This document shows positions 6,795 through 57,940 of a stretch of 61,838 nt of DNA, one piece after another. The position numbers and the translations under genes were made by a program. The stretch is from NCBI GenBank assembly GCA_035624185.1, contig DASPRZ010000055.1:1-61838 (forward strand), read 5' to 3'. A model generated the notes under the pieces. The model was not told the origin of the DNA. It ran no database searches and saw only the letters and a list, made by a program, of their open reading frames with translations. Source of the DNA: Candidatus Acidiferrales bacterium. GTDB lineage: Archaea; Halobacteriota; Bog-38; Methanoflorentales; Methanoflorentaceae. The stretch's first letter is position 1. Each line of letters opens with the position of its first letter.

Positions 6795-7622
6795 CTTCTG
6801 TTTCTGATATACCTTCTATATCGTTCGTACCGCTTCAAAGTCTTTGTCTTATTTGCTGATCATGCGTTGCATGGATAACTATCACGATTGCGAATGCATT
6901 TGTATGCTTAGGCAACATCGTCTTGTGGTCCAAGGATTATGATTCTGTTAACGTTCGATGTTTCAGAAAAAGAAACAAAATGGTTCATTTTAGTAGTTAC
7001 TAAATTTTAGGTAGCAGTGAAACGTATTTATAATCTTTACCCTTTTGCGCTATCGATGGCATTTAACTTCTTGGGTGGCAAATGTTACTATATTACAAAA
7101 TAAGTTCCAAGTTTTTGGAAACGGTAACCGTAAAGTTATTACAAGTACCAGCACACTGTGTGCCAAATTGGAGGCTTATGAGTGGAGTCGGACAGATATT
7201 TGTCGCGCTGCATGTGGATTCGTAATCGTCCGCTTCGTTGACATTCGTAGTGTCGACACACTCTTTACATGCCCGGCGCATAATAAACTTTGTATCGCAA
7301 CTACATTTGTTTACACTCGGTGTTACTCTCAAATTGTGCGATATTGTCACCATGGATAACGCACGACGTACATAATAGCCCACCTTGTGTTTAGTCCTTT
7401 CAGACGGTGGCTCTTGAGCCTGTAACGATATCGTTTGGCAACGTGCCGTCGATGGATCTATTTTTCTTATGTGTAGAGACAATCCTTGACGCCAACCCAA
7501 GGTATAACAGTGGGCACCGCTATTGATTCTGTTGTAACGTTTACGGAGCAGCGTAGGTGGGGTTGCTTGTAAAAAATTGCATATTTGATTTGATGACATG
7601 CGATATACTGACATCAATGAAA

Positions 7623-7639
7623 TTTACGCTAACCGTAAA
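7623..7639. promoter_or_regulatory. TTTAC-N7-GTAAA operator-like palindrome (TTTACGCTAACCGTAAA)
   Basis: Exact member of the 5-site set, 54 nt upstream of the micro-ORF start. Followed by hairpin 7642..7666. Confidence 0.55.
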
Positions 7640-7692
7640 GCATGTAGCCTTCTGAAAAGGCTGCATATTAAAACTCGAGGAGGTGAAAACAA

Positions 7693-7806
7693 GTGGTCTT
7701 AGCAATATTGTTGTTAGTCGCATTGGCGGTTGGGGCAGTCGGCCTTGTAGCCACGGCATTCTTCCCATTGTTATCGCCGGTGATTGCCTTACTTACTCTA
7801 GCATAA
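7693..7806 (+). CDS. 37-aa hydrophobic micro-protein (MVLAILLLVALAVGAVGLVATAFFPLLSPVIALLTLA)
   Basis: GTG start 6 nt after GGAGGTGA. Paralog at 57830..57940 has identical RBS spacing. Differences between the copies are mostly third-codon-position in this frame. Absent from the ORF track (<60 aa); track ORF 7683..7865 is a different frame. Confidence 0.55.
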   Translation: MVLAILLLVALAVGAVGLVATAFFPLLSPVIALLTLA

Positions 7807-7811
7807 CTATT

Positions 7812-7936
7812 GGGGTGCAGTGGGATACTGCAGGTAAAGAGCATGGTAGCTGTGTCGGTGAATGAAATTGTCTCTAGAAGTTAAACGCTAAAATATATAC
7901 AGCTGTTAAAAATAGTAGCAAATCTCACTGTTACCC
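7812..7936 (+). ncRNA. Conserved ~125-nt element downstream of the micro-ORF (candidate structured RNA or antisense RNA locus)
   Basis: About 80-85% identical by eye to 57966..58095. The ends GGGGTGCAGTG and CACTGTTACCC can pair in both copies. No conserved ORF. Confidence 0.3.
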
Positions 7937-8381
7937 TTTTATCTTTTTCTCTCTCAATATAGTTTTTATTTATATTTGTTCTCTATAACCTCAGAATGAA
8001 AAGCAGCAGTCAAGCATCTCTATGCATTTAAAGAAGACTGGGCTGAGCTGTGCCTGACGATCTACATTCCTCTATGGGCTGGATATTCTGAGGGATAAAC
8101 ACGCGAAGTAAAAAAAGAGCGTGGCCAATCTAATGCAGTTTCCGTCAAAGGCGATTGTACTTTAAGTAGGGTAAACCTGAGCGATAAAAATCAATATATT
8201 CCAAGCAGCTCGATTGAGAGTAAAGACTCAAACGAAATAAGTTAAACGAGGATTGGAAAATCTCTAAGGTCATTGCGTATCTGCACCTCGTGCGTATCGG
8301 GTGTGACGTGACGGACTATATGCTTTAACATGCTGGCAAACTTTCGTCTGCGTCACGCCGGTCGATACCGGTACCCCAACT

Positions 8382-10775
8382 TCATTTTACCTTGTACTGT
8401 TTCAGTCGCAATGAATTGGCGACCACTGACACGGAACTGAGCGCCATTGCCCCCGCGGCAAATTCGGGCCGGAGGAATCCCAGTGCAGCAATGGGGATCC
8501 CTACTGTATTGTAGACGAGTGCCCACCCGAAATTCTGCCGTATTGTATTCATGGTCTTCTTAGAAAGCCTGATGCTCGCGATGACATCACGTAGATCATC
8601 CTTTATGAGTGTGATGTCTGACGCTTCTATGGCAACGTCCGTTCCGGTTCCCATGGCAATTCCTATGTCTGCCTGCGCTAACGCTGCCGCATCGTTGATG
8701 CCGTCGCCCACCATCGCCACCGAATGCCCCCCCTCCCGAAAGAGTTCGATTTCGGCTGATTTGCCCGGTGGAAGGACGTTGGAACGCACCGTGTTAATTC
8801 CTATCTGTCGCGCGATGGCAAGGGCGGCTGTGCGATTGTCGCCTGTGAGCATCGCCGTATTAATCCCCATATCCTGCAATGCCGCGATCACCCCCGCCGC
8901 CTCTTCTCGCACCGTGTCAGCAAGGGCGATGGCCCCTTCCAGTTTGTTATTCACCGCCAGCAGCATGACGGTTTTCCCATCAGCTTCCAGTTCCCGGACC
9001 TTCAGTTCGAGGCTAACGTGCACCCCGTGAGCGCTCATAAGCTCTCTATTGCCGAGGAGGACCTCCGTGCCATCGAGGGAGGCTATGATTCCCTGCCCCA
9101 CCACTGCTTTAAACTCTCGGGGCTCACCGAGTTGTACCCCCCGTTCATACGCGTGGTGAACCACTGCCAAAGCAAGAGGGTGCTCGGATCCCCGCTCTGC
9201 ACTCGCGGCAAGGCGGAGAATGTCCGCTTCTGAAAAGGATTCATTCCCCACGATATCAGTTACCACTAATTCACCCTTGGTGAGAGTCCCGGTCTTGTCA
9301 AACACTATTGTGTCAATGTGCTCGGCGTTCTCGAGGTACTCGCCGCCCTTTATGAGGATGCCGTTTTCTGCGCCCAGGCCGGTCCCGACCATGACAGCGG
9401 TCGGCGTCGCAAGTCCCAAGGCACATGGACACGCGATGACGAGCACGGCAACCGTTCTCAGGAGCATAAGGTTGAACGGAAGGCCTACAATGCTCCATAG
9501 CACAAAGGTGAACAGTGCTGCCGCGATCACGCCGGGGACAAAGTAATTTGAGGCCCTATCGGCGAACCGCTGTATGGGCGCTTTCGACGTTTGCGCCATA
9601 TCGACCAGTCGAATGATCTGTGATAACGCTGTTTCCGCTCCCACTTTCGTTGCCTGCACCTTCAACAGCCCCTCCTGGTTGATCGTCGCCCCAATTACTT
9701 CATCACTTGGTTGTTTATCGACCGGAATGGGTTCACCCGTGAGCATAGCTTCGTCAATCGCAGAATGTCCCTCAACAATGACGCCATCGACGGGTATCTT
9801 CTCACCGGGCCGTATGAGGAGGGTATCCCCTACTCGGACATCATCTGTGGGTATTTGATTTTCTCCTCCGTCCCGCACCACTGTCGCATATTCTGCTTTT
9901 AACTTCAGGAGCTTTCGAATCGCCTCAGAGGTTCCACCTTTCGCCCGCGCTTCAAGGTAACGGCCGAACAACACAAACGCGAAGATAAAGACAGACGTGT
10001 CATAATACGTGTCACCGTGAATGACAAAGGTTGCTGCAACGCTGTACGCGTAGGCGGCTATGGTCCCCAATGAGATGAGGACGTCCATGTTTGCCCCTTT
10101 ATGGATAAGCGAGATGATCGCCCGCTTGTAGAAGCCATAGCCGATGATGATCATGACCGGGGTGGTCACCGCAAACTGGAACACGCTGTCCATGAGGATC
10201 ATCGGGATAAACGGAAGATAGGGTGCAAGCATCGCGAGCAAGAGCGGTATCCCAAAAATGAGGGTGAAAATAAGCTGATTGCGGTAGCCCGTAATCTCAC
10301 GTTCTCGAAACGCCTTCTCTCTATCTAAACGGACCGTTTCGGCTTCGACATCCGGAACTTCCACCACGTCATAGCCCGTGTCTCGTATCGTTTGAATAAT
10401 CGTATCTACGGTCACGACTGATGGATCGCGTTCGATTACCGCTTTGGCCGTCACCGGGTTAATGCTCACGTCGATGACGCCGGGCACTCCTTTCAGGGCA
10501 TTTTCGATTGCCGTAATGCAGGCAACGCACGTGATGCCCGCGATGTCAAGTTCCGTCCTTTCGATATCGACATCATACCCCACATCCCGAACCGCCTGTG
10601 CGAGTTGCTTTGGGGCTATTTTATCCGGATCGTAAGCCACAGTTGCCTGTGCTAATGCGAAGTTGATTGTCGCGTGTGTTACGCCCTCTTGATCTAACAG
10701 CTGCTTCTCGATCGTGAGCGCGCACATCGTGCAGGTCATGCCGAGGACTTTAAACGTGATGGTAGTTTCTGCCAT
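8382..10775 (-). CDS. copA: Cu(I)-exporting P1B-type ATPase CopA
   Basis: Two N-terminal HMA domains (GMTCTMC, GITCVAC), CPC motif [25 protein letters not shown]. Confidence 0.95.
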
Positions 10776-10936
10776 TCGAAAGCCTAGTTAGTTTAGTAAC
10801 GCATTTATTTATGCTAAATCATGATAGATAACGATTTGAAGCTACCGTCATCAACATTTTTTACCTTAATTACCTACTTCGGCACTCCGCTGGCGCTGTT
10901 CAGCTCCGTCTCGATCTGATACGCGCTCCAGTCACT

Positions 10937-11122
10937 TCACACTTGCCAGAATGCCACTACTCTTTCGACGTTTATGTAATCTCTACGGTTATCGTGCTCA
11001 AGAATTATCACGCCGTCAGCGCTTCCAACCACTTTCCCTTTAAGAGTTTCATTCGGTCTTCCCCCGAAATATACCTCAATCTCCTTGCCGTAGAAATGCT
11101 CGGAAACAGTTTTGTCCAGCAC
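10937..11122 (-). CDS. 61-aa conserved small protein upstream of copA (Sm-like/beta-barrel-like, function unknown)
   Basis: GTG start 7 nt after AGGAGGTG; the track's longer start is unlikely. 61-aa paralog at 51068..51253 sits upstream of the copA pseudogene. Confidence 0.65.
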   Translation of the reverse strand: MLDKTVSEHFYGKEIEVYFGGRPNETLKGKVVGSADGVIILEHDNRRDYINVERVVAFWQV

Positions 11123-11322
11123 GGGGCAGCACCTCCTCATAAAATTACCAATAATTTCTTGTTAACTGCACATGTGGTATTAGCTTTTCTTGTGCTCGTG
11201 AAAGACAGCGGTTCGGAGCACGAGGATGGTGTCAGTATACAAGGGGATTAAATGTTGATTACTCTCACTTAATTGGGTGCAGATAGCGATACAAACGAAG
11301 TGAAATTGAAAGAGGTATTAAA

Positions 11323-11574
11323 ATGACTGAGAAAATAAACGTGGAGGGGCTTCAATTAAGAATTTTGCAACTTGAGGGGGAACTGGAAACCATACATGAG
11401 CGGATAAGTCAAAGGGGACTTAAGGAAATTTTCGAAACGACGCTCGAAGTCGAGGATAGTGACCGGCTCACAGGACAAGTTGTCGCCACGGTCGACGCAT
11501 GGAGAACCTGCCTGCTTCAGTTTAGAATAAAGTTATCGAAGCTGCAAAAAGAGGCAGAATCGGAATTCTTCTAA
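11323..11574 (+). CDS. hypothetical coiled-coil-like small protein
   Basis: 83-aa ORF with an AGAGGT RBS. A decayed copy of its 3' end lies at ~25850..25940. Confidence 0.45.
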   Translation: MTEKINVEGLQLRILQLEGELETIHERISQRGLKEIFETTLEVEDSDRLTGQVVATVDAWRTCLLQFRIKLSKLQKEAESEFF

Positions 11575-11725
11575 GTTTGGATCTGCATGTACCACCATAG
11601 CAGTGACGCTCAGAAAGAGTTTAATGTCATGGTGTAGCGTGAACGCTTTCCACCGTGACATAGCTGCCAGAGTTCACGCAACTCCTGAACGCAGCACAGA
11701 TATTGGTAGTTCCTTTGTTATCTGC

Positions 11726-12067
11726 CTATGACTGCACTTGTAGGCGTCGCATCCTCAGCTTCTGTGCTCTGTTTCCATAGATCGCGTTGCACCGGATTGC
11801 TGCGTCCCATGCATCTGTTTCTGTGAAATAGGCTTTTAAAAACTTCTCACAGTAGAATATGGGAACATCATTGCATGTTATGTGCGCGAAATTATCGCTG
11901 CTCAGTAATTCTAATTCGCACCTGCCACACGTAGTGTCTTGGACCCGTTTGATGAGTATACCGAACAGCTCATTAAAATCATCAGTTCGGGTCTCTTGTG
12001 GTGGATAGTTATCCATTGCTATTGTCCGCAGTTTTGGTCCCTGTTTGATGTGGTCACTCATTGTCAT
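11726..12067 (-). CDS. hypothetical Cys-containing protein
   Basis: 113-aa ORF. A decayed copy of its 3' end lies at ~23390..23470. Confidence 0.4.
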   Translation of the reverse strand: MTMSDHIKQGPKLRTIAMDNYPPQETRTDDFNELFGILIKRVQDTTCGRCELELLSSDNFAHITCNDVPIFYCEKFLKAYFTETDAWDAAIRCNAIYGNRAQKLRMRRLQVQS

Positions 12068-12195
12068 TGCTCTTCATTGTCAATAAAAGAGCGCCAGCAG
12101 GTTAAGCAGACATTGCGCCCGGTCCGACTTCTTCAAGCGCAACATCAGCACTCCCAGGAGGGTTAAATGGGATAAGCTTAAGCGTGTGCTGGATT

Positions 12196-12247
12196 ATACC
12201 ACCACACTGAGAACGCGGATGTCGGATGATACCACCACACTGAGAAC
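12196..12247. repeat. Direct repeat ATACCACCACACTGAGAAC x2 (33-bp period)
   Basis: Two exact 19-bp copies at 12196..12214 and 12229..12247, upstream of ORF 11726..12067. Confidence 0.85.
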
Positions 12248-12316
12248 ATCGTGGGTAACCTTGGAATGATGTTAGAATTGATTCCATCTACTGGTATCTG
12301 CTTGTTAAAACCTATG

Positions 12317-12517
12317 TCAACAAAGACCCCTCCCTGCAGAGTCATACGCATGATTCACATTCCTAAATTCAAGTCCGACTTTCTCGCCAGCTCCCAGAGA
12401 TGTCGTCAGTAGAACTGTGGCCACTGATGTTGCTGAAAGAACTGACATGACGCTCATCAAGAGTCCCGATTTATGCTTCGAGGTTGTTGGTTTGGGTATT
12501 TTGGTTTTGGCAAACAT
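12317..12517 (-). CDS. hypothetical small membrane/secreted protein
   Basis: 66 aa with one hydrophobic segment. Divergent from the BlaI-like gene and shares the operator-bearing intergenic region. Confidence 0.35.
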   Translation of the reverse strand: MFAKTKIPKPTTSKHKSGLLMSVMSVLSATSVATVLLTTSLGAGEKVGLEFRNVNHAYDSAGRGLC

Positions 12518-12558
12518 TGGTTTACACCAACTGTAAATTATATCACTCGCATATAAAC

Positions 12559-12575
12559 TTTACGTTTAGTGTAAA
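12559..12575. promoter_or_regulatory. TTTAC-N7-GTAAA operator-like palindrome
   Basis: TTTACGTTTAGTGTAAA in the divergent promoter region. Confidence 0.55.
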
Positions 12576-12624
12576 TATAGTCTACATGGTAAAGTGGCGT
12601 TGCGAAATATTGAAATAGAATAAC

Positions 12625-12641
12625 TTTACAATATATGTAAA
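12625..12641. promoter_or_regulatory. TTTAC-N7-GTAAA operator-like palindrome (extended ACTTTACAatataTGTAAAGT)
   Basis: Ends 10 nt before the ATG of the BlaI-like gene. Longest perfect palindrome of the set. Confidence 0.6.
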
Positions 12642-12650
12642 GTGTAAAAG

Positions 12651-13016
12651 ATGGTAAAACTCGAGCGTATTAGCCTCCGAAATGAAGGGCTTAAAAAGTT
12701 CTTCAGCTCTAACGAAGTCAGGATACTGGAGTTGCTCTGGAAGAAGCAACCACTAACCTCAGCGCAGATACAAAGGGAATGTGAGGATCTTTCCCTCGCC
12801 TGTGTAGCGGGTACCCTTGACAGACTAGTGAAGAGTGGTTTCGTGGAAAGAAAAGTCGACGAGAGCGAAACAAGAGTGCGCTACATCTACTCCCCGACGT
12901 GCACCCAGGATGAACTCGGCGTGAGGATATCAGAGCACGTAGTCGACTGCCTCATCGACACTTTTGGCACTGCTGTTGTGAGCAGCATCGGAAAAGCTCG
13001 GGGGAAACGCAGCTGA
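12651..13016 (+). CDS. BlaI/MecI/CopY-family winged-helix transcriptional repressor
   Basis: 121 aa. The N-terminal pattern FSSNEVRILELLWKKQPLTSAQI is typical of the penicillinase-repressor family. Followed by an M56-type protease gene. Confidence 0.85.
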   Translation: MVKLERISLRNEGLKKFFSSNEVRILELLWKKQPLTSAQIQRECEDLSLACVAGTLDRLVKSGFVERKVDESETRVRYIYSPTCTQDELGVRISEHVVDCLIDTFGTAVVSSIGKARGKRS

Positions 13017-13153
13017 CTGCGCTGGATTGCTTCTTACGTTGTCTCACCCAACTTAACATACTGCTCCCATTTTCTCTCATCATAGCCTCATCGCTCTCTC
13101 TTTTCGTCCTCTTTTTCAAACTGAGGAAATATGAATTCCTCCTCGGGGGCCAG

Positions 13154-13684
13154 ATGGCAGTTACGGTGTCAATAGTGTTTGGTCTAATTTCAATGACGTG
13201 CCCTATGTATCAGTGGATATGGATTTATTCTGGGAGCGTCTCTTCAGGTATACTTGCGCTTACGCTGGTCAGGTACTGGGTGGCAAAAGAAGCTCGCAAG
13301 AACACAGTACCCCTCACCTCTTATGTCTTGCCGCTGGAAAAAGAATTTGGGGTACCGGTGCGGGTAATTGACACTCAGAAGATGCGGGCATTTGTCCACG
13401 GGGAGGCTGCCTATCTCTCGGTGGGGCTCCTAGAACATCTTAATTGGGATGAAGTGAGGGCTGTGGTGGCGCACGAAGTGTACCATTTAAAGCACAGCCC
13501 AGACAAGTTAATCTCTTCATTGCTGGCGCTGACTTCCTTAACCTTTAAGCCATATGATGACGAGCATCTGGCTGATAAGTACGCGGCAAAGGTCGCAGGA
13601 GAAGATAACCTTGCGAGGGCCCTCGAGAAACTGGAAATAGCAGGTAATGTACAGCGGATTAAAGATATTTTCAAAAGCAATTGA
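13154..13684 (+). CDS. M56 (BlaR1-like)/M48 zinc metalloprotease, short membrane-anchored form
   Basis: Two N-terminal hydrophobic segments and the motif VAHEVYHLKHSPD (HExxHxxxxD). The frame stays open and hydrophobic upstream to ~12914 without an ATG/GTG/TTG, so the start is uncertain. Confidence 0.75.
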   Translation: MAVTVSIVFGLISMTCPMYQWIWIYSGSVSSGILALTLVRYWVAKEARKNTVPLTSYVLPLEKEFGVPVRVIDTQKMRAFVHGEAAYLSVGLLEHLNWDEVRAVVAHEVYHLKHSPDKLISSLLALTSLTFKPYDDEHLADKYAAKVAGEDNLARALEKLEIAGNVQRIKDIFKSN

Positions 13685-13826
13685 TGTGTGACTTTACGCT
13701 CTCGATTGGGATTGAGATTTGTAACCATCCATTGACGCACGTCAGGACCGAATTCACGCCTAACTAAAAGGTGCCAGCGCGTGTTGAATTTGCCCAGATG
13801 AAACGTAATATATAGTTATTAATGAC

Positions 13827-13843
13827 TTTACACTAACCGTAAA
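13827..13843. promoter_or_regulatory. TTTAC-N7-GTAAA operator-like palindrome (TTTACACTAACCGTAAA)
   Basis: Upstream of the Cys-pair peptide gene. Its core is nearly identical to site 7623. Confidence 0.55.
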
Positions 13844-13863
13844 TTATATATTCTGTCACTGAC

Positions 13864-13880
13864 TTTACAGTCATTGTAAA
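13864..13880. promoter_or_regulatory. TTTAC-N7-GTAAA operator-like palindrome (TTTACAGTCATTGTAAA)
   Basis: Second site upstream of 13942. Followed by hairpin 13881..13907, which begins ATGTAG. Confidence 0.55.
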
Positions 13881-13941
13881 TATGTAGACTTGTCCGAAGA
13901 CTACATATTACAAACTCCTACAAACTCTAAGAGGTGAAAAC

Positions 13942-14202
13942 ATGAAAAACAGAGTAAAAATGTTCCTTACAGCATTTCTCGTCTTGAGTGTGTTTGGCAT
14001 AATGATAGCACAGACAGCAAGCGCTGCTGTCCCGCCAGCAAGCACTTCGGCGGCCTGCTGTCCCGGTGGCCCATGCTGTCCCGGTGGCGCTTGTTGCGGT
14101 GTAAAGGTAACGAGTTCTATTGCCGCCCCAACAATCATTTCGACGCTCTGCTGTCCCGGTGGCCCATGCTGTCCCGGTGGCGCCTGTTGCCACGTAAAGT
14201 AA
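13942..14202 (+). CDS. secreted peptide with two CCPGGPCCPGGACC repeats (12 Cys in six vicinal pairs)
   Basis: GAGGTGA RBS. Signal peptide MKNRVKMFLTAFLVLSVFGIMIAQTASA. 93-bp internal duplication (14055.. and 14148..). Confidence 0.7.
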   Translation: MKNRVKMFLTAFLVLSVFGIMIAQTASAAVPPASTSAACCPGGPCCPGGACCGVKVTSSIAAPTIISTLCCPGGPCCPGGACCHVK

Positions 14203-14825: not shown

Positions 14826-15047
14826 ATGATGAAAGTTCCTATGAACCAAGATACGAAGACGATGTGCGTCTGCCCGAGCTGTCCCACATTTATGGGAAAC
14901 AATCTCATGACTGGGGTGTTTTGCTCGACAGGTGAGACTGACAAAATGCAACACATGAAGGGATGTAATTGCCCGGGATGTAAAGTGCATGATATGTACG
15001 AGCTCAATGGAGGCAAACACACGTGTGGGTGTTGCTGGTGCGGCTGA
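14826..15047 (+). CDS. DUF2769-like Cys-rich small protein
   Basis: AGGAGGTGA RBS. Motifs CVCPSCPTF, FCSTGE and CNCPGCKVH match the remembered family pattern. Confidence 0.75.
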   Translation: MMKVPMNQDTKTMCVCPSCPTFMGNNLMTGVFCSTGETDKMQHMKGCNCPGCKVHDMYELNGGKHTCGCCWCG

Positions 15048-15576: not shown

Positions 15577-15685
15577 AGTTCAATCCTTGTTCTAATGAAT
15601 ACTGCTTGTAAATTCATTGTTACTCGCATCCCCATCGGTAGTGAAAGTTCCAATCCTTGTTCTGGTGGATGCTGCTTTTAAATTC
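15577..15685. repeat. Imperfect tandem duplication (~69-bp period, 2 copies) containing AATCCTTGTTCT
   Basis: AGTTCAATCCTTGTTCTAATGAATACTGCTTGTAAATTC versus AGTTCCAATCCTTGTTCTGGTGGATGCTGCTTTTAAATTC. Confidence 0.6.
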
Positions 15686-15989: not shown

Positions 15990-16135
15990 ATGGCAGAAAC
16001 CACTATCACGTTTAAAGTCCTCGGCATGACCTGCACGATGTGCACGCTCACGATTGAGAAGCAGCTGTCAGACCAAGTGGGAGTAACACACGCGACGGTC
16101 AGTTTGCATTAGCGCAAGCTATTGATTACGCAACA
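15990..16135 (+). pseudogene. copA 5' remnant (first HMA domain only)
   Basis: [26 protein letters not shown]... is nearly identical to the copA N-terminus, then a stop/frameshift. Its upstream ~70 bp also resembles the copA promoter region. Confidence 0.8.
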
Positions 16136-22132: not shown

Positions 22133-22831
22133 GAGGATGTCAACTTAAGAGTATAATAGTGTGAACACTCTTCTGTTTGAGGTGAAAAAGACATGTTCAC
22201 ACAGTTAACAGAACTCCTTGAAGCTCATAACGTTTTCGTTCGGGAACGGAAGCCCACTTCACTCCGTGCCATGGGAATCGCGCTGCTGTACTTCGGTCTG
22301 TCGTGCCGGCAGACGGCAGAGGCACTCTCGTTCTCCGACGAGGCTTCCCATGAAGCGGTGCGGCAGTGGTACCATCGGGCTCAGAAGCTGCTCTGTGATC
22401 CGTCGAAGCGGTACAGGCCGACGATAGCGATCGACGAGACGAAGTTCAAGGTGGAAAAACGGTGGTACTTTCTCTGGGCGGTCGATACGGAGAGGAGAGA
22501 GCTGCTTTGCGTCGAAATCACGCCGACGAGGGGTGGTCACGATGCCTCCCGGTTTATACGACGGGTGCTGAAAACGTGCACGAACACGCCGACGGTGCTG
22601 GTGGACGGTGGCCCGTGGTATCCAAGGGCTTTAACACGACTGAGAGTACCGTGGGAATGGGTCACGTTCGGGAAACGGAACGTAGTGGAGCAATGGTTTA
22701 GCATCTTCAAACAGCGAGTGAAGCGGTTTTATCGGCGGTGGCCGCATAATGCGCGGGCGGAGACGGCGACATCGTGGTGTGAGGCATTTGTAGCACTGTA
22801 TAATCTCAAGAGGGCTTAAGTTGACATCCTC
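22133..22831 (+). mobile_element. IS6-family-like insertion sequence (699 bp)
   Basis: 17-bp perfect terminal inverted repeats GAGGATGTCAACTTAAG. 8-bp direct target duplication AGAATTTT (22125..22132 and 22832..22839). Single transposase ORF. Confidence 0.85.
22193..22819 (+). CDS. DDE transposase (IS6-like)
   Basis: 208 aa with IAIDETKFKV, VLVDGGPWY and VVEQWFSIFKQRVKRF. The stop codon lies inside the right IR. Confidence 0.85.
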   Translation: MFTQLTELLEAHNVFVRERKPTSLRAMGIALLYFGLSCRQTAEALSFSDEASHEAVRQWYHRAQKLLCDPSKRYRPTIAIDETKFKVEKRWYFLWAVDTERRELLCVEITPTRGGHDASRFIRRVLKTCTNTPTVLVDGGPWYPRALTRLRVPWEWVTFGKRNVVEQWFSIFKQRVKRFYRRWPHNARAETATSWCEAFVALYNLKRA

Positions 22832-31068: not shown

Positions 31069-31818
31069 TTACTCTATTCGTTCCCTATGTGAATAGACAG
31101 AGAATTGCTCAACACCTGCAAAACAAACTAACGTGACACCAGTTTGAAGCGCCGATTCTATTCCGGTATTTATCGGCGCAGCTTTAGATACAATTAGTGG
31201 TATACCAGCACGAGCCGCTTTTAGGACCATGCCTGCAGGCTGTCTGCCTGATGATAATAAAAACGTGTAAGAGAAGTCGTTTCCTGCGAAAGCACCGATT
31301 ACTTTATCAACCGCACTATGCCTTCCAACATCAACTGCTTGAGCCTGCAACTCTCCTTTTCTGCTGAAGAGCGCTGCAGTATGGACACCATGGGTTTTCT
31401 GCCGCGTATACGTATTTAGGAACTGCAAACTCTCTTTTATAATCTGTTTGCCAAAACGTGCATCGGAAACGACTCTTATGTCCTCGTTTGTCCACCACTT
31501 AACGCCAATGCAACCAGAGGATCTAATTTCGTGCCAGAGTTCTACCTGATCAAAAGAAGAGACCTTCGAGTACGCCTCCATTTTGTTTTCGTCGATTACC
31601 ACTTCTTGGATATCATAGAAGTTAGTAACCACCCCTTCCGATAGCAAATAGCCGATGCAAAGCTCTCTAAGCATATCTGGAGACGCTACGAGCGTAGCAA
31701 TCCGTATGTCATTTACAAACAAGGTAATGCTGTCTTCTACAGCAACATCATCATAGTCCGAATACTCGGCGCCGTCGTATCGTATGTTTGTCCGCGAGAA
31801 AGCTTTGATATAGTCCAT
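31069..31818 (-). CDS. fdhD: FdhD-family sulfurtransferase (formate dehydrogenase accessory protein)
   Basis: HGVHTAALF, GRHSAVDKVIG, SGRQPAGMVLKAARAGIPLIVSKAAP. Confidence 0.85.
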   Translation of the reverse strand: MDYIKAFSRTNIRYDGAEYSDYDDVAVEDSITLFVNDIRIATLVASPDMLRELCIGYLLSEGVVTNFYDIQEVVIDENKMEAYSKVSSFDQVELWHEIRSSGCIGVKWWTNEDIRVVSDARFGKQIIKESLQFLNTYTRQKTHGVHTAALFSRKGELQAQAVDVGRHSAVDKVIGAFAGNDFSYTFLLSSGRQPAGMVLKAARAGIPLIVSKAAPINTGIESALQTGVTLVCFAGVEQFSVYSHRERIE

Positions 31819-57602: not shown

Positions 57603-57829
57603 CGCTTTTTTAGTTTTGTTCAAAAATTTTCTGTGACAAAGCTTTTTATGATTTACAGGTTAAGGTAATACATAGTGTTCAAACGCTGTGAACATGCATC
57701 GACCCGGTGAAACGCCTGTAATGTTGTGTTTCGCATCGTGCGCTATACCCGGTGCAGTGTATGTAGGAACAATACATCAGTTCTATCTTCATGTTTGAAC
57801 TGACATAGTAAAAGAGGAGGTGAAGGAAC

Positions 57830-57940
57830 ATGTTGCTATTCTTACTATTAGGAGCAATAGCAGTCGCGGCACTTGGCCTCGTAGGCACCGCGTTCTGCCC
57901 ATTGTTAGCGCCGCTGATTGCCGTGCTTACTCTGGCGTGA
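57830..57940 (+). CDS. 36-aa hydrophobic micro-protein (MLLFLLLGAIAVAALGLVGTAFCPLLAPLIAVLTLA), paralog of 7693..7806
   Basis: ATG 6 nt after GGAGGTGA. The C-terminal 20 aa are nearly identical to the paralog. The track ORF 57820..58005 is another frame. Confidence 0.55.
   Translation: MLLFLLLGAIAVAALGLVGTAFCPLLAPLIAVLTLA

Follow-up and report, generated by a model that had tools for sequence, protein, structure and literature searches.

Six exact copies of the palindrome TTTAC-N7-GTAAA in the window (the whole stretch of 61,838 nucleotides analysed here) are probably promoter-occluding operators of a BlaI/BlaR-like repressor-protease module, which possibly senses thiophilic metal or thiol stress. 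The palindromes would serve as operators of the 121-aa repressor encoded at 12651-13016, and this repressor, together with the protease encoded by the next gene (~220 aa, three helices, no separate sensor domain), would form a two-gene module that resembles the bacterial BlaI/BlaR signalling switch in archaeal form. Searches of the literature for an archaeal BlaI-like system, for the motif and for an M48 anti-repressor returned no description. The sites are as follows, with the TATA-like element that precedes the first of them:

7603-7608: TATA-like ATATAC, upstream of the operator at 7623-7639
7623-7639, no strand: single operator TTTACGCTAACCGTAAA, exact match, 20.3 bits; 5' of the 37-aa peptide gene and 3' of ATATAC
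12521-12537, no strand: operator A, TTTACACCAACTGTAAA, exact match, 24.5 bits, the top weight-matrix score; 3 nt from the ATG of a 66-codon gene stub
12559-12575, no strand: operator B, TTTACGTTTAGTGTAAA, exact match, 22.5 bits
12625-12641, no strand: proximal operator, TTTACAATATATGTAAA, exact match, 22.8 bits; ends 9 nt ahead of the repressor ATG
13827-13843, no strand: operator A2, TTTACACTAACCGTAAA, exact match, 22.0 bits; its GTAAA half abuts a TATA box, at the BRE position
13864-13880, no strand: operator B2, TTTACAGTCATTGTAAA, exact match, 19.8 bits; over the predicted transcription start

The original prediction held that such a palindrome is expected well under once in ~62 kb, and dinucleotide shuffles agree: 0.08 matches are expected, and none of 100 shuffles reached six. 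All five sites that it listed are exact and lie where it placed them, but it overlooked the sixth, at 12521-12537, 3 nt from the ATG of the minus-strand 66-aa ORF. It was right to place one site next to the repressor ATG and another upstream of the 37-aa ORF, although the first gap measures 9 nt and not 10, and the second site ends 53 nt and not 54 before the GTG. A search allowing one mismatch added a single site in the window, at 31712, which is within chance. When the window was scored with a weight matrix trained solely on sites of other genomes, the six sites received 19.8-24.5 bits, the next best position 5.3 bits and the best shuffled sequence 18.8 bits; a clean gap thus separates the six from all other positions of the window. 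With scores of -0.1 bits (7118-7134) and -6.5 bits (57652-57669), the two weaker relatives proposed earlier are noise. The counterpart of site 7623-7639 in a close relative (L060) has mutated outer bases (cTTAC..GTAAg), which makes this site the least conserved of the operators.

The motif recurs at the same positions in related archaea. The comparison comprised 30 orthologous loci from Halobacteriota, Thermoplasmatota and Bathyarchaeia (298 kb, 28-60% GC), with the complete relatives OY969924.1, CP070724.1, CP070798.1, CP070712.1, CP070739.1 and CP070751.1 covered as 12-kb pieces. These loci hold 84 exact sites, where 0.79 (about 0.8 per 298 kb) would be expected, and the positions are fixed near start codons. 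In 25 of the 30 loci an exact site precedes the repressor ATG by no more than 40 nt, with a gap of 2-3 nt in 20 of them. The permease ATG of the divergent operon has a type-A site at a distance of 1-4 nt in 24 of 25 loci, including those in which the permease is 3-4 kb away from the repressor. Type-B sites (TTTACGnT...) keep a distance from A of 42-45 bp in Thermoplasmatota; in the lineage of the window this distance is 36-38 bp. The arms of the palindrome are invariant and its loop is variable; the consensus reads TTTAC[A/G]-N5-[T/C]GTAAA, with A at position 6 in 56 and T at position 12 in 69 of 83 sites. At the repressor gene of three distant loci (L027, L029 and L030) an exact site is missing. 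The same placement beside an orthologous repressor and divergent target in three archaeal phyla agrees with the earlier proposal that the palindromes are the operator set of the adjacent repressor and define a small archaeal regulon, and on this comparative evidence their role as putative operators of the 121-aa protein is well supported.

One could assume that another transcription factor, encoded elsewhere, binds the palindromes and that the adjacent repressor is merely one of its targets. Two contigs, L134 and L067, bear many sites without a repressor gene on the contig, and a metagenome scan for operator pairs returned 120 loci that are mostly unrelated (tandem repeats, phage, bacterial and organellar DNA). 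In terabase-scale data the pair pattern by itself is not diagnostic. However, the two largest gene families that recur beside the metagenome pairs are the repressor itself and the Cys-peptide discussed below; a site abuts the repressor's own start in the 25 loci mentioned, and motif and repressor gene stay together in different phyla and at different GC contents. The recognition helix of the repressor and the half-site are moreover both invariant, which we count as a match between the two. We consider a factor encoded elsewhere very improbable.

The putative operators appear to be placed for promoter occlusion. Between A and B lies the following element:

12538-12558, + TTATAT and - TTTATATG: inter-operator spacer with back-to-back TATA-like boxes, read from the sequence

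As judged from positions in the sequence, every operator would cover an element of a core promoter. The A/B pair would flank the back-to-back TATA boxes in such a way that the GTAAA half of one falls on a BRE and the other site falls on the predicted transcription start, and the proximal operator, between a TATA-like box and the repressor start, would provide autoregulation. The back-to-back layout is likewise found in Thermoplasmatota loci. The reverse complement of operator A contains GGTGT, which is probably the Shine-Dalgarno sequence of the divergent gene. Because the operators lie on BRE/TATA and start, a bound dimer would exclude TFB/TBP or RNA polymerase. Archaeal promoter-occluding repressors such as MDR1, Phr and those of the TrmB type bind dyads at BRE/TATA, either overlapping it or a short way downstream, and so prevent recruitment of TBP/TFB or polymerase; these are one-component regulators, and none is known to be paired with a dedicated membrane protease.

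It is scarcely credible that the palindromes act instead at the RNA level, as 5'-UTR hairpins that affect translation or stability, or that they are chance or repeat-derived sequence. In many loci the sites are 1-4 nt from start codons, and five leaders have a distinct hairpin behind operator B, as would suit an RNA element; however, not all sites are transcribed, since for one direction A, A2 and B precede or span the TATA boxes, and an A/T-rich stem of 5 bp closing a 7-nt loop would be weak. Invariant arms with a variable loop are what one expects of a protein-bound dyad. The site counts exclude chance, the operator region has no match in Rfam, and Rfam and tRNA scans gave nothing relevant.

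The two genes of the module are:

12651-13016, + strand: 121-aa winged-helix repressor (Pfam Penicillinase_R / MarR)
13013-13684, + strand: ~223-aa membrane zinc protease with three TM helices and HExxH...ExxAD (PF01435, M48)

The original prediction called the repressor BlaI/CopY-like. It does pass the threshold of PF03965 (E 9e-11, 42.6 bits against a cut-off of 22.6, residues 19-112); however, it lacks the CxC motif of CopY and is equally near to MarR and AF2008, and fold and sequence searches place it as close to these two as to BlaI/MecI. Against the NCBIfam models for BlaI, MecI and CopY/TcrY it scores 15-21 bits, with cut-offs of 122-250, and its best NCBIfam matches are archaeal Sta1 and Lrs14, far below their cut-offs. 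Profile alignment to S. aureus BlaI covers only residues 19-101 versus 9-90, with 43% probability, and stops before the cleavage and dimerisation region of BlaI; the archaeal protein ends ~20 residues later. In BlaI the protease cleaves between Asn101 and Phe102, within the C-terminal helical dimerisation domain. We found 164 homologues of the repressor, and all of those with a source name are archaeal. The recognition helix GTLDRLVKS is invariant, as is an L..TFG motif (L101, T104, F105 and G106; position 103 varies between D and E).

These properties are also consistent with a different reading of the same binding, namely that the repressor is a one-component MarR-type protein that senses a ligand or oxidation directly, while the M48 protease is a co-regulated, HtpX-like quality-control target. 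The repressor matches MarR PF01047 (E 1e-7, 32.2 bits against a cut-off of 24.6), and MarR structures, which rank with its best fold matches, fit it as well as MecI/BlaI do. MarR proteins are ~140-150 aa long, and their N- and C-terminal helices form the dimer interface; the archaeal protein has only 121 aa, and its structural model shows one short helix at the N-terminus and two at the C-terminus. The half-site centres of the palindrome are 12 bp apart, a spacing typical for MarR-type dimers, and the cleavage region of BlaI is not alignable in the repressor. On the other hand, direct sensing of oxidation finds no invariant cysteine anywhere in the repressor family. The CopY-type CxC-x4-CxC is likewise absent (the C-terminus reads ...DTFGTAVVSSIGKARGKRS, without CxC), and CopY-like direct copper sensing by the repressor was ruled out for want of either feature.

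The membrane protease also bears on this choice. Its gene lies directly downstream of the repressor gene, co-oriented and with a gap of a few bases or an overlap, in 30 of 30 loci from three phyla, so that the module is present in Halobacteriota, Thermoplasmatota and Bathyarchaeia alike. The BlaI-like character of the system rests mainly on this invariant pairing with a membrane zinc protease, which was absent from the original prediction. About 96% of bacterial M56 gluzincins adjoin a BlaI-like repressor (PMC13492132). By Pfam and NCBIfam the protein is M48/HtpX-like, as the quality-control reading would have it: Pfam gives PF01435 only, with no match to M56 (PF05569), and a profile search of the PDB found HtpX, Ste24 and MJ1213 and did not find BlaR1. 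Foldseek does retrieve BlaR1 (8exs, E 0.014, probability 0.97; 8exr, E 0.028, probability 0.85), ranked behind the M48 entries 3c37 (3.5e-4) and ZMPSTE24, with TM-scores of about 0.4; the structure and profile searches did not separate M56 from M48 for the protease, nor BlaI from MarR for the repressor. The protein is, however, far smaller than HtpX, and it carries invariant Cys and Met residues, predicted to face outward, for which a housekeeping protease would have no need. Taken with the pairing, this makes the MarR-type alternative rather unlikely in our judgement, and we continue with the BlaI/BlaR-like module as the preferred reading.

In the model of the protease (pLDDT 77) three predicted helices precede the protease domain, with which the protein ends at about 220 aa; there is no extracellular C-terminal sensor domain. 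The gluzincin site (HExxH plus a downstream Glu) falls in a predicted cytoplasmic domain after the TM helices, with the topology assigned by the positive-inside rule. Residues C10, M61, C63, H154, E155 and H158 are invariant, and ExxAD is at 184-188. An outward orientation is predicted for the invariant N-terminal CxxxC and for the MxC turn that joins helices 2 and 3, and these residues likely form a sensor for a thiophilic metal, e.g., Cu(I), or for extracytoplasmic thiol oxidation; the protease would then presumably be the signal transducer of the module. In the window the protease frame has CTG at the place where relatives show TTG or ATG, and the first canonical start is ATG 13154, upstream of which the frame is open and conserved. 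Both candidate full-length starts in the window (13013 and 13022) are CTG, so that in this genome the function of the module may be reduced.

If the system works like BlaI/BlaR1, the protease would be activated by a signal, the repressor would be cut or otherwise inactivated, and the regulon would be derepressed; we infer both the proteolytic signalling and the nature of the signal. The likeness to BlaI/BlaR1 and MecI/MecR1 of Staphylococcus and Bacillus extends to a small winged-helix PF03965 repressor followed by the gene of a multi-pass membrane HExxH gluzincin, to several TACA/TGTA dyads over the promoters of the regulator operon and the divergent target, and to autoregulation. That the half-sites recall the TACA/TGTA logic with another spacing had been anticipated: the BlaI/MecI dyad is TACANNTGTA, extended to RNYKACANNTGTMRNY, or TACA-N2-TGTA (PMC7253601), whereas the archaeal dyads often show TACA-N5-TGTA, with a spacer of 5 bp and not 2 bp. 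The archaeal operators would overlie BRE/TATA and the transcription start, as opposed to -35/-10 in BlaI/MecI. The archaeal repressor differs in having no alignable C-terminal cleavage and dimerisation region; the ~220-aa protease is M48 and not M56, without a penicillin-binding or other extracellular sensor; and in place of beta-lactamase or PBP2a the targets comprise an ABC transporter and Cys-rich peptides. Most bacterial BlaR-like proteins also lack the beta-lactam (penicillin-binding) domain and adjoin a BlaI-like gene, and the non-canonical systems CenIR of C. difficile and the mycobacterial BlaI/BlaR (Rv1846c/Rv1845c) resemble the archaeal module in that their regulons concern the cell envelope or exported proteins, but their proteases are M56 enzymes with C-terminal tails, and they are bacterial (PMC13492132). 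The text of that survey, which searched by PF05569, mentions neither archaea nor M48 (PMC13492132).

The ancestral target would be the divergent operon, which is conserved among the loci and encodes an FtsX/MacB-type ABC permease (FtsX + MacB_PCD), an ATPase (ABC_tran) and an FtrD/DUF2318-like Cys-rich membrane protein. In the window only a remnant is left:

12317-12517, - strand: 66-codon stub of an FtsX/MacB-type ABC permease gene (tblastn)

The original prediction had treated this 66-aa ORF as the divergent gene. The ORF with operators beside it exists, but it is a permease stub and not its own kind of gene: in tblastn it matches the N-termini of ~418-aa permeases at 18 loci (E down to 3e-9), and permease residues ~4-50 alone survive. 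The comparison suggests that the operon decayed in the window to this stub. In C. jejuni, DUF2318, FtsX-type ABC and thioredoxin genes have a joint redox role, and the archaeal permease, ATPase and DUF2318/FtrD-like set resembles FetA (DUF2318)-FetBCD (FtsX-type ABC)-FetEF (thioredoxins), for which an extracytoplasmic redox role has been proposed (PMC10783030). The archaeal operon differs in its single permease gene and in an entirely different regulation, and the examined loci showed no FetM/FetP (Ftr1/P19) partner.

Sequence comparison further suggests that the operator cassette was recruited in the window to two peptide genes. The elements concerned are:

7642-7666, + strand: leader hairpin ATGTAGCCTT...AAGGCTGCAT, directly 3' of the operator; -14.0 kcal/mol, z -2.5
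7693-7806, + strand: ORF of a 37-aa hydrophobic peptide; GTG start, RBS GGAGGTGA
13844-13851, + strand: TATA-like box TTATATAT between A2 and B2, read from the sequence
13881-13907, + strand: leader hairpin ATGTAGACTT...AAGACTACAT; -11.3 kcal/mol, z -2.0; aligns with the other leaders
13942-14202, + strand: ORF encoding a secreted peptide of 86 aa that contains two CCPGGPCCPGGACC blocks; candidate member of the regulon, specific to the lineage

A cassette of operator, TATA box, operator, hairpin and Shine-Dalgarno sequence would now drive the CCPGxCC peptide gene, and a single operator would precede the 37-aa gene; the leaders of the two genes are paralogous copies of one cassette. The operator-pair DNA scan led to homologues of the 86-aa peptide that this operator pair likewise precedes in L046 (E 2e-11), L060 (3e-18) and L101 (8e-6), with GTATATAT or GTGTATAT at the position of the TATA-like box, and in L101 the cassette occupies the permease's place, divergent from the repressor. 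A search of 5.8 billion proteins yielded only one distantly related protein, P0121, which has CCPDGSCC repeats. The 37-aa peptide has no family match; because it has a 36-aa paralogue in the window (57830-57940) and a homologue in L060, the ORF is probably a real gene. No operator is present at the 57.8-kb paralogue. Both leader hairpins fold as described earlier, and the same element stands behind operator B in the leaders of the Cys-peptide genes, both in the window and in L046, L060 and L101. Compensatory change in 2 of 11 pairs among the five closely related leaders is weakly suggestive of a conserved RNA.

In the window, and likewise in L046 and L060, P1B-type ATPase genes adjoin those of the Cys-peptides. 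The six sites on the metagenome contig L134 stand amid thioredoxin, PCYCGC, rhodanese, Ccm, DsbD and cupredoxin genes, which suits a role in thiol or metal stress. CopA was rejected as a member of the regulon: no site is near its promoter, and its cassette (8269-11353) is a recent indel relative to L060, so that its adjacency is a weak pointer to copper. CopY/CopR of Firmicutes share with the archaeal system the Pfam family of the repressor, two dyads per promoter and a possible link to copper (Cys-rich secreted peptides and nearby Cu-ATPase genes), but the operator spacing differs and the CopA gene of the window has no operator. With no C-terminal CxC...CxC, metal could not act on the archaeal repressor itself as it does in CopY.

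We put forward tentatively, and with some doubt, that the module may be the first archaeal case of BlaI/BlaR-type regulated proteolysis, in which a three-helix M48-like protease would sense metal or thiol oxidation via its own CxxxC and MxC, destroy the repressor and induce an extracytoplasmic thiol/metal regulon (a FetA/FetBCD-like transporter and, in some lineages, metallothionein-like CCPGxCC peptides). Few routes of transmembrane signalling to transcription are understood in archaea, and what archaeal M48/HtpX-like proteases do is given as unknown in a review (PMC9263693). The system is compact and testable, with a 121-aa repressor, a defined 17-bp operator, a clear promoter layout and a 220-aa protease whose sole sensor candidates are a handful of invariant Cys and Met residues. 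With it, the recent recognition of BlaIR-type systems as general environmental sensors, beyond antibiotics, would cover a second domain of life as well as the M48 side of the protease clan. It would also provide a regulatory handle on the DUF2318/FtsX transporter set, the secreted CCPGxCC peptides and the tiny hydrophobic peptides, and the invariant operator is directly usable for regulon prediction in the genomes of uncultured archaea.

An exact search of the 61.8 kb for the palindrome TTTAC-N7-GTAAA returns six sites (starting at 7623, 12521, 12559, 12625, 13827 and 13864), against an expected count of 0.08; none of 100 dinucleotide shuffles gave six. The original prediction had listed five of these, each of them an exact match, and had overlooked the one at 12521-12537. 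When one mismatch is tolerated, only one more site turns up, and it is unrelated. A weight matrix trained solely on sites from other genomes and then applied to the window gives the six sites 19.8-24.5 bits, and the best position outside them 5.3 bits, lower than scores attained by shuffled sequence; two positions put forward earlier as weaker relatives score -0.1 and -6.5 bits and drop out of the set. All six sites are intergenic, and the features around them are as follows.

7623-7639: single operator
7693-7806 (+): gene for a hydrophobic peptide of 37 aa
8382-10775 (-): Cu-type P1B ATPase gene (CopA)
12317-12517 (-): 66-codon ORF, permease stub
12521-12537, 12559-12575: operators A and B
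12625-12641: proximal operator
12651-13016 (+): repressor gene, 121-aa winged-helix protein above the Pfam cut-offs for Penicillinase_R (E 9e-11) and MarR
13013-13684 (+), directly behind the repressor gene: protease gene, membrane HExxH protein with a Peptidase_M48 match
13827-13843, 13864-13880: operator pair of the Cys-peptide gene
13942-14202 (+): Cys-peptide gene, 86 aa, signal peptide, two CCPGGPCCPGGACC blocks

The repressor has 164 homologues, and all those with a source name come from archaeal metagenome-assembled genomes. One genome per species yields 30 loci under the labels Halobacteriota/Methanomicrobia, Thermoplasmatota, Bathyarchaeia and Archaeoglobaceae; protein identity ranges over 41-93% and GC content over 28-60%. 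In the 298 kb of these loci, 84 exact sites occur where base composition predicts 0.79, and their positions are tied to start codons. The repressor ATG has an exact site at most 40 nt upstream of it in 25 of the 30 loci, usually with a gap of 2-3 nt. A divergent gene of ~418 aa is present in 25 loci, and in 24 of them an exact site lies 1-4 nt from its ATG, even where that gene is 3-4 kb away (L009, L015, L023, L027 and L029). The operator arms are invariant and the spacer is variable, as expected for a dyad bound by a dimer, and the recognition helix GTLDRLVKS is invariant throughout the family. Given the fixed positions, the invariant arms and the invariant helix, which we regard as strong evidence, the palindromes are probably operators of the 121-aa repressor, as the idea of an operator set serving the adjacent repressor had it. 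The most distant homologue, from Archaeoglobaceae (L030, 41% identity), keeps the recognition helix; its locus contains no TTTAC-N7-GTAAA site, and upstream of its repressor gene, at 1470-1502, we find CCTGTTGTAAAAATTTCACAGG, in which half-sites of a similar kind stand in everted order.

The product of the divergent gene is an FtsX/MacB_PCD permease; the next genes code for an ABC ATPase and for a protein containing the FtrD-like domain, formerly DUF2318. In C. jejuni, DUF2318, FtsX-type ABC and thioredoxin genes cooperate, and a role in envelope redox has been proposed (PMC10783030). The 66-codon ORF of the window is interpreted as a permease stub because it aligns to only the first ~50 residues of the permeases; it keeps an intact promoter and both operators. 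The direct DNA repeat ccaccacactgagaac, present twice at 31 bp start to start (~12200-12250), encodes SQCGGII twice inside a 61-codon ORF, 12102-12287 (-), just beyond the stub, and is also found in L060, a metagenome contig from a close relative.

Read from the sequence, two TATA-like boxes in opposite orientations lie between operators A and B. The archaeal BRE consensus is RNWAAW, and the GTAAA arm adjoining each box is compatible with it; the other operator of the pair lies ~25-27 bp downstream, at the predicted transcription start. Because of this arrangement, each operator would block both promoters, one at its BRE and the other at its start site. Where a Shine-Dalgarno sequence would be expected, 7 nt ahead of the permease ATG, stands GGTGT (type-A reverse complement). 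The start-to-start spacing from A to B is 42-45 bp in Thermoplasmatota versus 36-38 bp in the lineage of the window. Both TATA boxes are present in the pair 12521/12559 and the + strand box only in the pair 13827/13864, and the single operator at 7623 lies downstream of ATATAC. In Thermoplasmatota, the proximal operator is preceded by AAATTTTATATA and ends 2-3 nt before the ATG; it is therefore predicted to lie between the TATA box and the 5' end of an mRNA with little or no leader. Many Thermoplasmatota loci have two operator pairs (L007, L008, L010, L012, L013, L014, L017 and L019). Upstream of their repressor-proximal pair a long-range inverted repeat, GGGGAGTTTGATC and GATCAAACTCCCC separated by 45-55 nt, is conserved within ~115 nt before operator A' and ends exactly at it (e.g., L013 5765-5879). 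It shows apparent compensatory changes (GACC/GGTC in L019, GGGGG/CCCCC in L017), and in most loci both strands fold, at ~-18 to -30 kcal/mol (only -9.9 for the + strand of L007). This element, which is absent from the window, could be a leader RNA, a non-coding RNA or a tiny ORF.

The repressor had been described as BlaI/CopY-like. The Penicillinase_R match agrees with this; the CxC motif of CopY is missing, and the alignment with verified S. aureus BlaI is limited to residues 19-101 against 9-90, with no clear counterpart of the BlaI cleavage/dimerisation region. A profile search against PDB sequences finds AF2008 (6e-7), a MarR-type protein (3e-4), MecI (5e-4) and BlaI (1e-3), and a fold search with the predicted structure (pLDDT 78.5) returns the same mixture. 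Membership in the BlaI/MecI/CopY group is thus nominal and derives from the Pfam match.

A protease homologue follows the repressor gene in all 30 loci, its start usually a few bases past the repressor stop codon. In the alignments the protease domain comes after three hydrophobic helices, with C10, Q47, M61, C63, W70, Y72, H154, E155, H158 and an ExxAD motif invariant. Positive charge is found in the loop after helix 1 and in the segment after helix 3, and the domain must be cytoplasmic to reach the repressor; on these grounds the CxxxC helix at the N terminus and the MxC turn are predicted to be on the outer side. The closest structural matches to the AlphaFold model (mean pLDDT 77) are an M48 peptidase and ZMPSTE24, followed by S. 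aureus BlaR1 (probability 0.85-0.97) and then selecase, a minimal gluzincin. The profile search against PDB sequences finds HtpX, Ste24 and MJ1213, and BlaR1 is not among its matches. By these structural and profile matches the protein is a minimal gluzincin of the M48/M56 group that lacks a sensor domain. In a review on membrane proteases of archaea, the functions of HtpX/M48 are listed as unknown (PMC9263693).

In the window the repressor-protease locus is under remodelling, as seen from the permease stub, the protease starts and the extra sequence at 6888-12602. The latter is absent beside the repressor in L001, which is the closest genome, and the CopA + DUF6897 cassette within it (8269-11353) is missing from L060, where the flanks are contiguous; this region is an insertion/deletion hotspot. 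An IS240-family DDE transposase gene at 22193-22819 (+), from the Pfam annotation of the source contig, is consistent with rearrangements in the region. Both protease start positions used by relatives (TTG in L001 and L060; ATG elsewhere, in Thermoplasmatota) are CTG in the window, and the first CTG overlaps the TGA stop of the repressor. The first canonical start is ATG 13154; ahead of it, 47 further codons (13013-13153) are open in frame and conserved, and they specify helix 1 with the conserved CxxxC. The window protease may use non-canonical or coupled initiation, or else be truncated at its N terminus.

A scan of metagenome DNA for operator pairs gave 120 loci, most of them unrelated and three informative. 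The close relative L060 shares 97% DNA identity over 5.1 kb of flank and 89% over the repressor-protease region. There, and in the more distant L046, a CCPGxCC peptide gene follows a window-type cassette; in L101, also more distant, the Cys-peptide gene is divergent from the repressor and occupies the position of the permease. Because the same order, operator-TATA-operator-hairpin-GAGGTGA, precedes the gene in all three, the Cys peptide appears to be a recurrent regulon member within the lineage of the window. The leaders of the 37-aa and Cys-peptide genes in the window are paralogous. The leader hairpins noted originally are recovered downstream of operator B and fold in five of five leaders, with stems that partly differ; compensatory change affects only 2 of 11 pairs, and our guess is a stabilising 5' stem-loop. 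The 37-aa ORF is probably a real gene and probably a recent, weak regulon member; the counterpart of its operator in L060 is degraded. Its 36-aa paralogue at 57830-57940 (+), MLLFLLLGAIAVAALGLVGTAFCPLLAPLIAVLTLA, lacks an operator but has GGAGGTGA as a strong ribosome-binding site; the two may belong to a small family of very short membrane peptides. Also downstream of the Cys-peptide gene are a 73-aa Cys-rich DUF2769 protein (14826-15047, +; ~620 nt) and a 40-codon ORF (15990-16112, +; ~1.8 kb) near-identical to the CopA N-terminus, a duplicated, truncated Cu-ATPase gene fragment. One match to the Rfam CRISPR-DR7 repeat model lies at 15647-15683 (-; 39.9 bits, gathering score 37), and we noticed no surrounding CRISPR array.

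Among known systems, the nearest to this one are BlaI/BlaR1 and MecI/MecR1, the non-canonical BlaIR systems (CenIR, mycobacterial BlaIR) and CopY. Roughly 96% of bacterial M56 proteases are linked with BlaI-like genes, which the archaeal pairing parallels (PMC13492132). The half-sites do recall TACA/TGTA with different spacing, as had been suggested, the spacer being 5 bp here versus 2 bp in the known system (PMC7253601). Compared with these systems, the promoter logic is archaeal, the repressor is shorter, the protease is an M48-type mini-protease without a sensor domain, and the regulon comprises a transporter and Cys peptides. Our literature searches found no description of such an archaeal system or of the TTTAC-N7-GTAAA motif.

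The invariant repressor-protease pairing argues for a BlaI/BlaR-like mode of action, in which the protease would pass the signal on by inactivating the repressor; by analogy, we regard such a relay as an evenly balanced proposition. A tentative candidate for the signal is a thiophilic metal or extracytoplasmic thiol stress. Pointing this way are the protease's invariant Cys and Met residues with their predicted outward orientation, the target operon with its DUF2318 and FtsX genes, the CCPGxCC peptides, which are secreted, and the P1B ATPase genes that adjoin the Cys-peptide genes in the window, L046 and L060. A simple copper signal is disfavoured, since the weight-matrix scan finds no operator at CopA and the CopA cassette is missing from L060. 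Two metagenome contigs that carry no repressor gene also point to thiol or metal stress: L134 (13.5 kb) has six exact sites (1330, 4206, 4245, 5183, 6372 and 12646) and L067 has five, placed in front of, or between, genes whose products are thioredoxin-like, polyferredoxin, PCYCGC-motif, rhodanese, Met-rich secreted, CcmE/F/H, DsbD-like and cupredoxin-like proteins. These contigs may represent a larger regulon, for thiols, metals and cytochrome maturation, that is under a related regulator.
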